Below are positions 1,951 through 56,460 of a DNA stretch of 64,000 nt, one piece after another. The position numbers and the translations under genes were made by a program. The notes under the pieces were generated by a model. That model did not search any database and was not told the origin of the DNA. It saw only the letters and a list, made by a program, of their open reading frames with translations. How positions within the stretch are numbered: the first letter of the stretch is position 1; the number at the start of each line of letters is the position of its first letter. The DNA comes from Anaerolinea sp. (lineage in GTDB: Bacteria > Chloroflexota > Anaerolineae > Anaerolineales > Villigracilaceae): assembly GCA_020723805.1 (NCBI GenBank), contig DYID01000006.1:74694-138693 (forward strand). The letters run 5' to 3'.

Positions 1951-1968
1951 CACCAATTACCAATTACC
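1951..1968 (+). repeat. CCAATTA heptamer tandem repeat (single arm)
   Basis: caccaattaccaattacc ends 3 nt before the ynfA ATG. Confidence 0.75.
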
Positions 1969-2309: not shown

Positions 2310-2332
2310 CACCAATTACCAATTACCAATCA
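2310..2332 (+). repeat. CCAATTA heptamer tandem repeat (single arm)
   Basis: caccaattaccaattaccaatcac lies between the ynfA stop and the mmsA RBS. Confidence 0.75.
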
Positions 2333-2348: not shown

Positions 2349-3815
2349 ATGGACATCCTCAACTACATCAACGGCGCATGGATCAAACCAAACGCCCCCG
2401 AATACTTCGACGTAATCAACCCCGCCACGGGGCAGGTCATCGCCCGCACGCCGCTCGGCACGAAAGCCGATGTGGACGCGGCGGCGCGCGCGGCGGCGGA
2501 AGCCTTCCCTGGCTGGCGGCGGGTCCCAGTCAACGACCGCGTGCAGTACCTGTTCAAACTCCGCAACCTCCTGCGCGAACACATGGACGAAATCGCCAAA
2601 CTCATCACTGACGAGTGCGGCAAGACCTTCGAAGAATCCCGCGCCGAGATGGTGCGCGCCGTGGAAAACGTGGAAGTCGCCTGCGGGATGCCGCACTTGG
2701 GCAAGGGCGAGTTTGTGGAAGACATCGCCTCAGGCATTGACGAGACGATGATCCGCCAGCCGGTGGGCGTGTGCGCCACGATTGCGCCCTTCAACTTCCC
2801 CGGCATGATTCCCTTCTGGTACCTGCCCTACGCCCTCGCGGCGGGCAACACCTACATCGTCAAGCCTTCGGAAAAAGTGCCGATGACCATGCAGTACATC
2901 TTCAAACTCATCGAGCAGGTCGGTTTCCCGAAGGGCGTGATCAACCTAGTCAACGGCGCGAAGGAGGCGGTGGACGGCATTCTTGAGCATCCGACCATCC
3001 GCGCGATTACCTTCGTCGGTTCGACCAATGTGGCGAAGTACATCTACGCCACTGCCGCGGCGCACGGCAAGCGCGTACAGGCGCAGGGCGGGGCGAAGAA
3101 TCCCGTCATCATTTTGCCCGATGCCGATATGGAGATGGCGACGAAGATCGTCGCCGATTCCGCCTTCGGGTGCGCGGGGCAGCGCTGCCTGGCAGTTTCC
3201 CTCGCTGTGACGGTTGCCGAGGCGCGCAACACCTTCACCGAGTTGATCTGCGACGCCGCCTCCTCGCGCGTGGTCGGCTACGGCATGGACGCGGGCGTGC
3301 AGATGGGACCGGTCATCAATCAGGCGAGTAAAACGCGCATCGAGCAGTTGATCGGCATCGGGTCCGAGGGAGGCGCAAAGGTCTGCGTGGACGGGCGCGG
3401 GACGGTGGTCAAAGGCTACGAAAAAGGCTCCTTCGTCCGCCCGACGGTCATCGCCGATGTTCAGCCCGGAAGCGAACTCTGGAAGACGGAGGTCTTCGGT
3501 CCCGTGCTGGGGCTGATGCACGTCAACACCATCGAAGAGGCGATTGCGCTGGCGAACAGTCACATGTACGGCAATCAGGCGAGCCTGTTCACATCGAGCG
3601 GGGCGGCGGCGCGCAAGTTCAAGTACGAGGTCGAGGCGGGCAACATCGGCATCAACATCGGGGTTGCCGCGCCGATGGCGTTCTTCCCCTTCAGCGGCTG
3701 GAAGGACAGTTTCTTCGGCGACATGCACGGTCAAAGCATGGACGCGGTGGAGTTCTTCACGCAGAAGAAAGTGGTGGTGGAGCGCTGGCCCCGCGAGTGG
3801 ACGAGGAAGTTTTAA
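2349..3815 (+). CDS. mmsA: CoA-acylating (methyl)malonate-semialdehyde dehydrogenase
   Basis: [28 protein letters not shown] (catalytic Cys), EVFGP and [12 protein letters not shown] are typical of MmsA/IolA. Confidence 0.88.
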
Positions 3816-3884
3816 TTTGGTAATTGGTAAATGGTAATTACCACTTGCCAATTACCAATTACCATTTACTACTCACCAATCACC
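3816..3884. repeat. Heptamer-periodic inverted-repeat element (TAATTGG arm + CCAATTA arm), empty form
   Basis: tttggtaattggtaaatggtaatt followed by accacttgccaattaccaattaccatttac; starts immediately after the mmsA stop. Confidence 0.8.
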
Positions 3885-3899
3885 ATCTCTTGAGGAATT

Positions 3900-10122: not shown

Positions 10123-10222
10123 AGTCTCGAGTCTCATAGTCTGATGGAGTGATCGCTATAAGAAAGTGTTCGATAAGGCGATAAGACTATAAGACTATAA
10201 GACTATAAGACTATGAGACTAG
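10123..10222. repeat. 7/8-mer periodic inverted-repeat element
   Basis: Left arm agtctcgagtctcatagtct; right arm (ATAAGACT)x4 + ATGAGACT at 10181-10220. Confidence 0.75.
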
Positions 10223-10283
10223 TTGACTAACCCAAACTAACTCGCACAACGCGGGTTATAAAACAAACGGAGAAGAAAGGATC

Positions 10284-11729: not shown

Positions 11730-11760
11730 TGAAAAAACTCGATACTTGGAGGAGGTCGCC

Positions 11761-13662
11761 ATGCCATACGGTTACAATGGCAAAATTCTGCATGTGGATT
11801 TGACGAAGGGTGAATTGACGGTGGAGGAGCCGCCCGAGTCGTTCTATCGCAAGTATTTGGGCGGGAGCGCGATGGGTATGCATTACATCCTGCGCGACAT
11901 GCCCAAAGGCGCCGACCCGCTGGGACCTGAAAATGTGCTGACGCTGTTTACAGGCGTGACGACGGGCGCGCCGATCTCGGGTCAGAGCCGCCTGAACGCC
12001 AACGCCAAATCGCCCATCAGCGGCGGCATCGGCGACTCGCAAAGCGGCGGGTTTTTCCCTGCCGAGTTGAAGTTCGCAGGCTTCGACGGTATTGTGATTA
12101 AAGGCAAGTCGCCCAAGCCTGTGTATCTGGCGATTGTGGATGGCAAAGCCGAACTGCGCGACGCCTCGCATTTGATGGGAAAGATCACGGGGGAGGTGGA
12201 CGATATCCTTCACAAGGAAGTGGATCCGAAAGCCGAAATCCTTCAGCATGGTCCCGCCGCCGAAAAGGGCGTGCTGTTCTCGTCGCTGGTGAGCATGTCC
12301 AATCGCCACAACGGACGCACGGGCATGGGCTTGGTGATGGCTTCCAAGAATCTCAAGGCGGTTGTCGTGCGCGGGACGAAGAAGGTGGAGGTCGCCGACC
12401 CCAAGGCGCTGACCGAATTGAACCGCATCGGTCCCAAAGCCATCCCCGAAAACGGCGACATGGACGGGCTGGCAAAGTTCGGCACGGCGGTTGTGGTGTT
12501 GTTCAACAATACAATCGGCTGTCTGCCGACCCGTAACTACAACGAAGGTCAGTTCGAGGGGTGTGAAGCCATCAGCGGCGAGAAGATGGCAGAGACCATC
12601 CTCAAGGAACGTGATACTTGCTACGCCTGCGTGGTCAAGTGCAAGCGCGTGGTTGAGGTCAAGGAAGGGGCGTACAAGGTGGACCCGCGCTATGGCGGTC
12701 CCGAATACGAAACGCTCGGCACGTTCGGCTCGTATTGCGGCGTGAGCGATTTAGCGGCGGTCTCGCTGGCGAATCAAATCTGCAACGAGTACGGCGTGGA
12801 TACCATCGCCTGCGGCGCGACGATTGCCTTTGCGATGGAGTGCTACGAAAAGGGCATCATCACTAAAGAGCAGACCGACGGCATCGAATTGAAATTCGGT
12901 GACGCCGACGCAATGCTGGCGGCGTTGAACAAAATCGTCAAAGGCGAGGGCGAGCTCGGCAAAACGCTCGGCATGGGGTCGGAACGCGCGGCGAAGAAGT
13001 GGGGCAACGGCGCGGACGAGTGCCTCATCACGGTCAAGGGTGCAGAAGCGCCCGCGCACATGCCTCAGGCGAAGCGTTCGCTCGGTCTCATCTATGCGGT
13101 CAATCCGTTCGGCGCGGATCACCAATCCAGCGAACACGACCCCTACTACGAAGAAGGCGTTGGAGACTTCAACCTAAACCGCCTCAAGCAAATCGGACTT
13201 GGTTCGCCTCAGCCCGCCTACAGCCTCACGGAGGAAAAAGTCCGCTTCGCTTACGAGACCGAGGTCTTCTACTCCATGCTCGACTCGCTCGAACTCTGTC
13301 AGTTTGTCTGGGGTCCCACGTGGACGCTCTACGACGGCGAACAGACCGCCGCCATGCTGCGCGCGGTCACAGGCTGGGATGTAACCCTCGACGAATTGAT
13401 GGAAGTCGGACGCCGCCGCCTGAACCTCTTCCGCGTGTTCAACGCCCGCGAGGGATTCGGGCGCAAGGACGACAAACTGCCGAAGAAGTTCTTCAAACAA
13501 TTGCAGGGGACGGGTCCCACTGCTGGCTTCGCGCTGACTCACGAAGAGATTGATTCCGCCATAGACGCCTACTACAAGATGGCAGGCTGGACCGCCGACG
13601 GCGTGCCGACCGCCGAGACGCTCAAGAAACACGGCGTCGAGTGGGCGGCGGAGTATCTCTAG
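11761..13662 (+). CDS. aor: Aldehyde:ferredoxin oxidoreductase family protein (W/Mo-bis-pterin, AOR1)
   Basis: GYNGKILHVDL, AKSP..GG, GLVMASKNLKA, CYACVVKC [4Fe-4S] motif, PEYETL, CNEYGVD, FNAREG, DKLPKKF. Confidence 0.88.
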   Translation: MPYGYNGKILHVDLTKGELTVEEPPESFYRKYLGGSAMGMHYILRDMPKGADPLGPENVLTLFTGVTTGAPISGQSRLNANAKSPISGGIGDSQSGGFFPAELKFAGFDGIVIKGKSPKPVYLAIVDGKAELRDASHLMGKITGEVDDILHKEVDPKAEILQHGPAAEKGVLFSSLVSMSNRHNGRTGMGLVMASKNLKAVVVRGTKKVEVADPKALTELNRIGPKAIPENGDMDGLAKFGTAVVVLFNNTIGCLPTRNYNEGQFEGCEAISGEKMAETILKERDTCYACVVKCKRVVEVKEGAYKVDPRYGGPEYETLGTFGSYCGVSDLAAVSLANQICNEYGVDTIACGATIAFAMECYEKGIITKEQTDGIELKFGDADAMLAALNKIVKGEGELGKTLGMGSERAAKKWGNGADECLITVKGAEAPAHMPQAKRSLGLIYAVNPFGADHQSSEHDPYYEEGVGDFNLNRLKQIGLGSPQPAYSLTEEKVRFAYETEVFYSMLDSLELCQFVWGPTWTLYDGEQTAAMLRAVTGWDVTLDELMEVGRRRLNLFRVFNAREGFGRKDDKLPKKFFKQLQGTGPTAGFALTHEEIDSAIDAYYKMAGWTADGVPTAETLKKHGVEWAAEYL

Positions 13663-13683
13663 TAATTGGTAAATGGTAATTGG
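13662..13683. repeat. TAATTGG heptamer arm (left arm of the filled element)
   Basis: gtaattggtaaatggtaattgg; 20 nt are identical to 3820-3839. Confidence 0.8.
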
Positions 13684-13737
13684 GGATGAGATGACGTGTC
13701 TCGTCCCCAATTTGTCAATCGCATTGGATGAATTCAA

Positions 13738-14535
13738 ATGAATCGACCCTCGATAGACTCCCCCTTTCGCTCGTTGATTGGAATGGGCGAAATACAGGCG
13801 GTATACAAACAGGGGATGGCATCGAAACTTTCCAATGCTTTCGGGAGCCTGCTTTTTTTGCTGGCGGGCGGTTACGTTCTTTATTACGGCTTGAACTACA
13901 AGAATGTTTATCCCGACGTGGCAGCGACGAACACACCGTTTATCGTTGGATTTGCCTTGATCTTGATCGGGGCGGGTGGATACTGGGCGTGGACTCTCTT
14001 TTCACGTTGGAATGAGGTGGCTGTTCTTTACCAAAATGGCTTTGCCCATTTCAACGGACGCGACGTGACGAGCTTCCAATGGAATGACATTACTTCCATC
14101 ACTGCGAAAGTCACCCGCATGACGGTGTATCATTTCATTCCTGCTGGCACGATGCGAAAATATATTTTCGAAAGCCCTTCGGCGCGCTTGAAATTGGACG
14201 GGACGCTTTCAGGCGTGGACGAATTGGTGAACCAAATTCGCCAGAATGTTTTTCCAATTATGGTAAACCGCCTGTCACAGGAATTGAACGCTGGCAAGAC
14301 ACTCTCGTTTGGACCAATTTCAATCAGCAGAACCGAAGGCATTCGATCGAAAAATAAAAAATATGCCTGGGCGGATGTGGCGGGGCTGAGAGTGGTCAAC
14401 GGCATTCTGGAAGTCGTTCCAAAGAAGAAAGGATTGTTTGGCAGAATTAGTTCCGACATCGGTTTCATTCCCAATCTCGACATTCTTATTGCGCTCTCGA
14501 CAGACATGATCCGACAACACAATCAAAATTCATGA
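13738..14535 (+). CDS. Hypothetical membrane protein (two N-terminal TM helices plus a PH-like soluble domain; possibly DUF6585-like)
   Basis: 265-codon ORF that is AT-richer than its neighbours and has no recognisable catalytic motif. Confidence 0.6.
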   Translation: MNRPSIDSPFRSLIGMGEIQAVYKQGMASKLSNAFGSLLFLLAGGYVLYYGLNYKNVYPDVAATNTPFIVGFALILIGAGGYWAWTLFSRWNEVAVLYQNGFAHFNGRDVTSFQWNDITSITAKVTRMTVYHFIPAGTMRKYIFESPSARLKLDGTLSGVDELVNQIRQNVFPIMVNRLSQELNAGKTLSFGPISISRTEGIRSKNKKYAWADVAGLRVVNGILEVVPKKKGLFGRISSDIGFIPNLDILIALSTDMIRQHNQNS

Positions 14536-14541
14536 GTCTTG

Positions 14542-14568
14542 AATTACCAATTACCAATTACCAATTAC
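14542..14568. repeat. CCAATTA heptamer arm (right arm of the filled element)
   Basis: aattaccaattaccaattaccaattac; its reverse complement matches 13662-13683 at 21/22. Confidence 0.8.
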
Positions 14569-14586
14569 TTCCCAAGAAAGAACCCC

Positions 14587-15870
14587 ATGACCAACTCCCT
14601 CTACACCGAAAACTTCCCCCACATGACTCCCGCGTGGAGCCGCATCTTCAACTTCGTCGCCGACCGCGCCGAAGGCTCCTACATCTACACCGACGACGGA
14701 CGCAAACTGCTCGACTTCACCTGCGGCATCGGCGTGACGAACACGGGTCACTGTCACCCGAAAGTCGTCGAAGCGATTCGCGAGCAGGCGGGGAACTTTA
14801 TCCACGCGCAGGCGAATCTCGTCATCCACAAGCCGATGCTGCAACTCATCGAAGAACTGCGCAAGATCGTCCCGCCTTCGATTGACAGTTTCTTCTTCGC
14901 CAACTCAGGCGCGGAGGCGCTGGAAAACGCGGTCAAGATTGCGAAGGTGGCGACGGGACGCCCGAACGTCATCGTCTTCAGCGGCTCGTTCCACGGGCGG
15001 ACTCATGCCACCATGGCGCTGACCACGTCCAAGACGATTTACCGCGCGGGCTTTGCGCCGCTCATGGCGGGCGTGTACGTCGCGCCGTTCCCCTATGCCT
15101 TCCAACTCAAAATGACGGAAGAGGAAGCCAGCCAATACGCGCTGGAGCAGTTGGAGCATCTGCTCGCCTCGCAGACCGCGCCGAAGGAAACCGCCGCCAT
15201 CATCCTTGAAACCGTTTTGGGGGAAGGCGGCTACATCGTCCCGCCCGCCTCGTTCATGAAGGGTCTGCGCGAGATTTGCGACAAGCACGGTATCTTGCTG
15301 GTCCTCGACGAAGTCCAATCGGGCTTTGGTCGCACGGGCAAATGGTTCGCCTTCGAGCATTTCGGCATCGTGCCAGACATCATGACGGTTGCGAAAGGAA
15401 TCGCTTCGGGCATGCCGCTCTCAGGCGTGTTCACCCGCACCGAAATCATGAAGAAACTCGACACAGGCTCCATCGGCGGGACGTATGGCGGGAACGCCGT
15501 CGCCTGCGCCGCGGGAGTCGCCACCATCCGCGCGATGCGGGAAGAGAAGATGCTCGAAAACGCCGCCGAGCGCGGCATCCAACTGATGACGGGACTCCGC
15601 AAATTGCAGGAGGAATATCCGCAAATTGGCGACGTGCGCGGACTGGGGCTGATGGTCGGCACCGAGTTTGTGGTGGATGGAAGCCAGGTAAAAGCCAAGC
15701 CGCTCGTCAAGGAAATCATCCACAAAGCGGAAGAGAAAGGCTTGCTCCTGCTTTCCTGCGGCACCTACGACAACACCGTCCGCTGGATCCCGCCGCTGAA
15801 TGTGACGAGCGGGCAGATCAATGATGGGCTGAATATTTTTAGCGAAGCGTTGAAGGAAACCATAAAATAA
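14587..15870 (+). CDS. gabT: 4-aminobutyrate aminotransferase-like class III aminotransferase
   Basis: DFTCGIGVTNTGH, NSGAEALENAVK, FHGRT, DEVQSGFGRTG, AKGIASG and GGTYGGN; start moved past the repeat to ATG 14587. Confidence 0.7.
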   Translation: MTNSLYTENFPHMTPAWSRIFNFVADRAEGSYIYTDDGRKLLDFTCGIGVTNTGHCHPKVVEAIREQAGNFIHAQANLVIHKPMLQLIEELRKIVPPSIDSFFFANSGAEALENAVKIAKVATGRPNVIVFSGSFHGRTHATMALTTSKTIYRAGFAPLMAGVYVAPFPYAFQLKMTEEEASQYALEQLEHLLASQTAPKETAAIILETVLGEGGYIVPPASFMKGLREICDKHGILLVLDEVQSGFGRTGKWFAFEHFGIVPDIMTVAKGIASGMPLSGVFTRTEIMKKLDTGSIGGTYGGNAVACAAGVATIRAMREEKMLENAAERGIQLMTGLRKLQEEYPQIGDVRGLGLMVGTEFVVDGSQVKAKPLVKEIIHKAEEKGLLLLSCGTYDNTVRWIPPLNVTSGQINDGLNIFSEALKETIK

Positions 15871-19344: not shown

Positions 19345-19368
19345 ATTACCACTTACCAATTACCAACC
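19345..19368 (+). repeat. CCAATTA heptamer arm abutting a start codon
   Basis: attaccacttaccaattaccaacc-ATG. Confidence 0.65.
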
Positions 19369-56444: not shown

Positions 56445-56460
56445 ATTACCAATTACCAAC
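56445..56460 (+). repeat. CCAATTA heptamer arm
   Basis: tattaccaattaccaac after the response regulator stop. Confidence 0.55.

Follow-up and report, generated by a model that had tools for sequence, protein, structure and literature searches.

In the 64,000 nt stretch of an Anaerolinea sp. genome analysed here (assembly GCA_020723805.1, contig DYID01000006.1; the whole stretch is called the window below), a gene of the DUF6585 family lies in an operon between an aldehyde:ferredoxin oxidoreductase gene (AOR) and a class-III aminotransferase gene (gabT-like, hereafter gabT), and is enclosed by two short, complementary arms. These arms are likely (probability about 0.75) to be independent members of a genome-wide (AATTACC)n heptamer family that is found at stop-to-start operon junctions. 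The left array is part of a conserved hairpin element following AOR (13662–13722), and the right array is a leader repeat that stands before gabT in relatives too. The inverted arrangement around DUF6585 would thus follow simply from the gene having a junction repeat on either side, and would not identify a cassette. An apparent cassette of this kind, a gene flanked by two copies of a common junction repeat, does not warrant listing among new mobile systems.

The AOR–DUF6585–gabT junction

The features of the junction, in window coordinates, are:

11746..13662, + strand: AOR; Pfam AFOR_N, E = 7e-67, and AFOR_C, E = 8e-128; stop codon TAG at 13660–13662
13662..13683, + strand: left arm gtaattggtaaatggtaattgg, a (TTGGTAA)-type heptamer array of 3.1 copies, beginning at the last base of the AOR stop
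13678..13711, + strand: GC-rich hairpin AATTGGGGATGAGA-tgacgtg-TCTCGTCCCCAATT, locus-specific and not a genome-wide repeat
13708..13722, + strand: degenerate right half AATTTGTCAATCGC, which can pair locally with the left arm
13738..14535, + strand: DUF6585 family gene, 265 aa; Pfam E = 5e-26; single copy in the genome
14542..14568, + strand: right arm array (AATTACC)3.9, lying in the gabT leader; the paired part, ccaattaccaattaccaattac, is 14547–14568
14587..15870, + strand: gabT; Pfam Aminotran_3, E = 9e-134

An earlier note on this DNA had described a 22-bp inverted repeat, matching at 21 of 22 positions and enclosing an AT-richer membrane gene, with its left arm at the AOR stop and its right arm 18 nt before the gabT ATG. 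The coordinates, the pairing and the positions of the arms were all confirmed from the sequence. The right array starts 6 bases past the DUF6585 stop and ends 18 nt upstream of the gabT ATG at 14587, and the 21/22 complementarity of the arms gives a duplex energy of −27.4 kcal/mol. The copy numbers of 3.1 (left) and 3.9 (right), with a period of 7, were obtained with Tandem Repeats Finder (TRF), and an independent array detector of our own agrees with them. The DUF6585 open reading frame (ORF) has a GC content of 47.9%, compared with 59% for both neighbouring genes, and its product has two hydrophobic segments, both N-terminal.

The segment 13662–13722 has a local fold of −25 kcal/mol (z = −4.2), and because the left arm finds a local partner within it, at 13708–13722, this segment is by itself a complete junction hairpin element. 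An Rfam scan of 13500–14700 matched no family, and a scan for promoters and terminators found none inside the region and none at the arms, so the DUF6585 gene is probably co-transcribed with AOR and gabT.

A heptamer repeat family at operon junctions

The genome searched is a 3.69-Mb assembly (57% GC, 54 contigs), in which the locus lies on contig C26. AATTACC arrays were counted with a dedicated detector and period-7 arrays of any unit with TRF. There are 240 AATTACC arrays in the genome, compared with 0–20 for each of 15 composition-matched (permuted) heptamers. TRF reported 751 period-7 arrays of many unit families, among them AATTACC (165), ACTGATC (61), AAAGAGG (46) and AAAGTGG (44). The left-arm 20-mer gtaattggtaaatggtaatt occurs 17 times in the genome, and the window contains 19 matches to TAATTGGTAA at up to one mismatch, where 1.4 would be expected. 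With the arms being part of a repeat family spread over the whole genome, it is not improbable in itself that two given arrays should pair.

The position of the arrays was judged from gene calls made by a crude, home-made ORF scorer, which leaves the fraction lying inside genes uncertain; by these calls, 175 of the 240 AATTACC arrays lie outside genes or at their edges. The median distance, also from these calls, is 3.5 nt past the stop codon for arrays in the GGTAATT orientation and 20 nt before the start codon for those in the AATTACC orientation. Pairs of AATTACC arrays less than 100 nt apart are inverted in 42 of 43 cases, and 14 of them have exactly the same 4-nt centre, AATT. The arrays may arise by replication slippage and fold-back copying at this AATT centre and, if active at all, would act between cistrons as RNA hairpins with an influence on the stability, processing or translation of the mRNA.

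Other members of the family in the window are:

1952..1968, + strand: solo (AATTACC)n array, found by our own array detector
2311..2330, + strand: solo (AATTACC)n array, shortly upstream of the aldehyde dehydrogenase start at 2349
3817..3885, + strand: back-to-back (TTGGTAA)n/(AATTACC)n palindrome with the left-arm 20-mer at 3820–3839, between aldehyde dehydrogenase and aminotransferase genes
19345..19366, + strand: solo (AATTACC)n array, upstream of a glycosyltransferase gene
56445..56459, + strand: solo (AATTACC)2 array, found by TRF and our own array detector

The palindrome at 3817–3885 had been taken for an empty form of the DUF6585 locus, with the left-arm 20-mer joined directly to a right arm without cargo. 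This direct join is indeed present, and the surrounding RNA (window 3810–3895) folds at −25.6 kcal/mol (z = −6.3). The genome has about 43 such AATTACC palindromes, this one included, and as they fold well, the supposed empty form is a common junction element.

Period-8 arrays are a second abundant class in this genome (268 TRF rows). One octamer array, (ATAAGACT)6, lies at window 10173–10229, in the spacer upstream of a saccharopine-dehydrogenase-like gene.

The junction in related genomes

The spacer between AOR and gabT measures 46–186 nt in 17 members of the genus, or 418 nt in the case of G010. A hairpin starting at or near the AOR stop was seen in all 17 of 17 members (z = −2.3 to −11.4), its sequences being unrelated between lineages. 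In G005, G015, G001, G054, G049 and G004 a GGGGATGAG..CTCATCCCC hairpin follows the AOR stop without any DUF6585 gene, and in most of these genomes there are, in addition, a left-arm-type array, other heptamers and, ahead of gabT, an array of the AATTACC type. As relatives lacking DUF6585 carry both the hairpin and the two arrays, the hairpin at 13678–13711 and the arrays exist at this junction independently of the gene. The central GGGGATGAG hairpin was not found elsewhere as a genome-wide repeat, and is locus-specific.

A protein search with DUF6585 returned relatives at 62%, 62%, 57% and 38% identity. The relative at ~57–58% is a protein from a Chloroflexota metagenome-assembled genome (NCBI name; contig L071), and one of the two at 62% is on L072. 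Both genes lie between AOR and a class-III aminotransferase gene, with identities to the window of 76% (AOR), 82% (gabT) and 58% (DUF6585) in L071, and of 89% (AOR) and 62% (DUF6585) in L072. The DUF6585 start in the window lines up with the GTG starts of both orthologues. L071 has the left arm, GATTGGTAAATCGTAATTGGTAATTGG, and the hairpin, without a complementary right arm; in the spacer before its aminotransferase gene (L071 2135–2193) there is a heptamer run, ACGCAAT ACGTAGT ACGCATG, which is unrelated to AATTACC and stands where the window has AATTACC, indicating that one repeat family has been replaced by another at the same site. L072 has the hairpin only, and no arms.

The expectation that DUF6585 occurs at this junction only together with arms therefore fails, its orthologues sitting there with the left arm alone (L071) or with neither (L072). 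Given these orthologues, and given that the arms belong to an abundant repeat family, the proposal that the arms are a cassette or insertion system carrying DUF6585 is not sustained; nor is a dedicated excision stem for this gene, since orthologues occupy the same junction without the long-range stem. The DUF6585 homologues of other families in the order are not flanked by arms, so that DUF6585 is not a usual cargo. A search of genome contigs with DUF6585 gave a match to Neobacillus only (33% identity). Nine metagenome contigs of the window's own species carry identical arms and an identical gene, and no arm copy-number polymorphism was seen among them, in a look-up that finds filled alleles only. 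By these comparisons, DUF6585 is an old, fast-evolving resident of the AOR–gabT junction in a few lineages, around which arrays come and go.

Orientation and GC content of array pairs

Arm pairs across the genome had been predicted to be enriched for variable, low-GC cargo. No such enrichment was found. AATTACC array pairs 500–1500 nt apart are inverted in 13 cases and direct in 22, and among all period-7 array pairs up to 2.5 kb apart there are 46 inverted versus 60 direct, so direct pairs are the commoner kind. The median GC of genes enclosed singly is 0.598 for inverted pairs and 0.604 for direct pairs, compared with a genome median of 0.583. A period-7 array stands at one end of 17% of genes and at both ends of 2.6%. 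An inverted array pair around a gene is not special in this genome.

These counts argue against a dedicated gene-cassette or other mobile system that uses the heptamer arms as recombination sites: pairs in inverted orientation show no excess, and the genes within them are not low in GC. The geometry fits such a system. Like an integron cassette, DUF6585 has no promoter of its own, reads in the same direction as the genes beside it and is bordered by imperfect inverted repeats; the gene content of the junction varies across the genus, and the genome encodes an integron integrase (C10:50586-51539; TIGR02249, 463 bits, cut-off 265 bits). However, attC core sites are missing (read from the sequence, neither arm has the GTT/AAC cores, R'' RYYYAAC and R' GTTRRRY), there are repeats on both sides rather than one 3′ attC, no target is duplicated outside the arms, and DUF6585 is a single-copy gene within a conserved catabolic operon that is not beside intI/attI. 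An integron cassette array was likewise considered and rejected: intI lies at the very end of contig C10, so its cassette array is not assembled beside it, while the locus is on C26, in an operon conserved across the genus. With homologues in other families of the order lacking arms, and orthologues at the very same site lacking them as well, a cassette system is largely refuted and can be regarded as extremely improbable.

A miniature inverted-repeat transposable element (MITE) or an insertion-sequence-like element was also rejected. Terminal inverted repeats are present (21/22), but the flanks, CTCTA and TTCCC, are not duplicated and DUF6585 is single copy.

Gene gain and loss at a mosaic junction

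Several observations weigh against the arms being independent junction repeats. None of the remaining 81 species genomes of the genus has DUF6585 at the AOR–gabT junction. In G014, the closest relative by gabT (96% identical), the exact site is occupied by TAATTGGTAAATGGTAATTACCATTTACCAATTACC, a perfect palindrome without cargo whose left arm is the same as in the window; the extra DNA of the window relative to G014 has AATT at both borders (13678–13681 and 14542–14545), and the two alleles look like a filled and empty pair. By the crude home-made ORF calls, 65 of the 240 AATTACC arrays fall inside genes. The long-range 21-bp stem between the arms is part of the minimum-free-energy fold of 13650–14600, with a pairing probability near 1. 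Lastly, genes for four-helix-bundle proteins regularly lie in an arm-enclosed geometry, and a mechanism shared with the DUF6585 locus is conceivable.

The G014 allele bears most directly on an alternative in which a single junction palindrome, such as that of G014 or the one at 3817–3869, was opened at its central AATT when a DNA segment with the hairpin and DUF6585 inserted there. In a variant of the same idea, the G014 form would have arisen by deletion between two AATT microhomologies brought together by the stem. In either case the arms would have been there beforehand, as fragile or recombinogenic sequences, and would not be part of a dedicated cassette system. The AATT at both borders agrees with this, as do the 14 palindromes of the genome with that exact 4-nt centre, and the operon around the junction is a mosaic: AOR is 98% identical to that of G010 and 84% to that of G014, while gabT is 96% identical to that of G014 and 89% to that of G010. 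These opposite affinities suggest recombination breakpoints at or near the junction (window 11746–15870).

The junction is hypervariable, and other genes also appear at this site within the genus. In G010 (L013 330–695; G010:C11, minus strand) a 121-aa four-helix-bundle gene stands between arms CCAGTGTCAGGT and ACCTGACACTGG; the junction holds one aldehyde dehydrogenase gene in G009 (L029) and two in G002 (L030), and a similar 3-kb gap is found in G046 (L031) and G044. A split palindrome is nonetheless unlikely. Relatives without DUF6585 already have the hairpin and the left arm, so that only the ORF would be the insert; the orthologues have no right arm (L071) or no arm at all (L072); and a degenerate partner for the left arm lies close by, at 13708–13722. 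The gain and loss of cargo proposed for this junction by the earlier note thus stands in part, with an empty allele in G014 and a gene content that varies across the genus, but a cassette system behind it is not supported. Hairpin-bearing operon junctions are hot spots of small-gene gain and loss.

A possible long-range stem in the operon RNA

With independent junction repeats as the preferred reading, the 21-bp long-range stem could still form in the complete operon transcript, as a possible substrate of RNase III; there is no sign of selection for the stem. It is thermodynamically possible, but most likely incidental. The alternative is a functional stem that would loop out the DUF6585 cistron, with an RNase III cut uncoupling DUF6585 from AOR and gabT, in the manner of the intervening sequences (IVS) of rRNA. 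Looping-out at the RNA level is possible, as the stem occurs in the predicted fold (pairing probability near 1, duplex −27.4 kcal/mol) and the genome has an RNase III gene; the region has no internal promoter or terminator, and the four-helix-bundle genes show the same geometry. Co-transcriptional folding, however, would favour the local hairpin at 13662–13722 (−25 kcal/mol), translating ribosomes would open so AU-rich a stem, and the DUF6585 orthologues manage without one. A functional stem is very unlikely on this balance of predicted folding and comparison.

Comparison with known repeat systems

The heptamers of this genome resemble the short tandemly repeated repetitive (STRR) sequences of cyanobacteria and the TAACTGA repeats, having a tandem 7-nt unit, an abundance above that of matched heptamers, and a mainly intergenic position near starts and stops. 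TAACTGA direct repeats are known from Beggiatoaceae, cyanobacteria and Bacteroidetes, and in the Beggiatoa genome 1 of 170 repeat sets is inverted (MacGregor 2015, PMC4679880). The likeness extends to 7-nt units in 2 to ~9 copies, hundreds of arrays per genome, a mostly intergenic placement near start codons, and several unit families in one genome (PMC4679880). Arrays of the TAACTGA unit itself also occur in this genome, in the forms AACTGAT (14 TRF rows) and ACTGATC (61 TRF rows). The differences are that the host is a genus of Chloroflexota, that the dominant unit is AATTACC, and that the arrays are very often inverted back to back, forming hairpins from the upstream stop codon. A Chloroflexota genus is thereby added that has STRR-like heptamers at a density, and in a palindromic arrangement, undescribed for the known cases.

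The repetitive extragenic palindromic (REP) sequences and bacterial interspersed mosaic elements of enterobacteria are imperfect palindromes too, found in many copies at gene 3′ ends within operons and able to form mRNA hairpins. They differ in having a fixed 35-nt unit, where here there are tandem heptamers. A system of REP sequences with an associated transposase (REP/RAYT) was rejected, none of the 7 Y1_Tnp genes of the genome lying between inverted heptamer arrays. MITEs of the Correia/NEMIS type form hairpins in operon transcripts that are cut by RNase III. The present arrays share with them inverted repeats at gene junctions that are able to fold in polycistronic RNA, but have no fixed terminal inverted repeats, target-site duplication or common internal sequence.

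Four-helix-bundle genes in repeat-built stems

ORFs for four-helix-bundle proteins of PF05635 (23S_rRNA_IVP) are found in the stem loops of 23S rRNA IVS, and the related Avd occurs in diversity-generating retroelements. The DUF6585 locus is like a 23S rRNA IVS in that an ORF lies between long complementary arms, and PF05635 genes stand in such arms at six other junctions of this genome as well as at the AOR–gabT junction of G010. It differs in being an mRNA operon junction, with DUF6585 and not PF05635 as cargo. The PF05635 loci of the genome, by contig, are:

C32:86456-86836 (L042 1501-1812)
C17:29701-30262
C49:73042-73566
C20:4226-4718
C42:45483-46029
C41:109288-109779

All six PF05635 genes (6/6) lie between inverted, repeat-built arms and are co-oriented with their operons. 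As only 2.6% of genes are flanked by arrays on both sides, six of six is not a chance result. The arm unit is different at each locus: five are heptamers (TTGGTAA/AATTACC, GAAGGAT/ATCCTTC, GATTTTA/TAAAATC, TAGGAGA/TCTCCTA and CAGTGAT/ACTGATA), and at the sixth the arms consist of AAGAGCCAAAGG and its complement. A one-to-one pairing of four-helix-bundle paralogues with heptamer families was considered and dropped, the families outnumbering the genes and each operon having its own local family.

Across the genus, 14 of 20 four-helix-bundle loci have inverted, repeat-built arms. In a scored test (score >= 12), arms were found at 12/19 loci of the genus versus 1/38 displaced controls, and at 19/25 loci of the order, from many families, versus 1/50 displaced controls. 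Flanking direct matches were found at none of the 25 loci of the order set. A literature search found no described link of four-helix-bundle genes with inverted or heptamer repeats.

The analogy with rRNA IVS drawn by the earlier note therefore fits the four-helix-bundle loci (6/6 in the genome; 19/25 in the order against 1/50 controls), but not the DUF6585 cargo. It could be carried further, with the repeat-built inverted arms as the ends of an IVS-like module that inhabits operon junctions of this Chloroflexota order and whose usual gene encodes a four-helix-bundle protein (23S-rRNA-IVS-protein, Avd-like). The stems would then be processed in the polycistronic RNA, modules and empty palindromes would come and go from one junction to another, the four-helix-bundle protein may be one that recognises nucleic acid with a heptamer period, and DUF6585 would be a rare alternative cargo. 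This reading is decidedly unlikely. The presence of four-helix-bundle genes in mRNA-junction stems makes the nature and spread of the rRNA IVS ORFs testable, by comparative genomics and RNA-binding assays.

The C17 locus, at an acyl-CoA dehydrogenase junction, illustrates how such a junction varies among relatives. Its four-helix-bundle gene lies in AATTACC arms, and G010 has an orthologous ORF with arms that have drifted. At the orthologous junction of G014 (L073, G014:C6:3724-4800, compared with C17:29700-30282) there is an 85-nt empty palindrome of a ACACAGGT-type family, and the 200 residues of the downstream protein that were compared are 99% identical. Other members of the genus have GC-rich hairpins of unrelated sequence at this junction. 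In this comparison of relatives, the hairpin is retained while its sequence family changes. That each junction keeps a hairpin even as the sequence forming it changes points to selective pressure on the structure of the RNA or DNA.

The C20 locus lies in a cas operon (C20:2735-6982; Cas1- and Cas2-like products, recognised by eye from the translations) with (GATTTTA)n arrays at every junction. Among the cas genes is an inserted four-helix-bundle gene that contains an in-frame TAA, and close to its N-terminus the Cas1-like protein includes heptamer repeats translated in frame (PQSQIANPKSQIENPEIEN).

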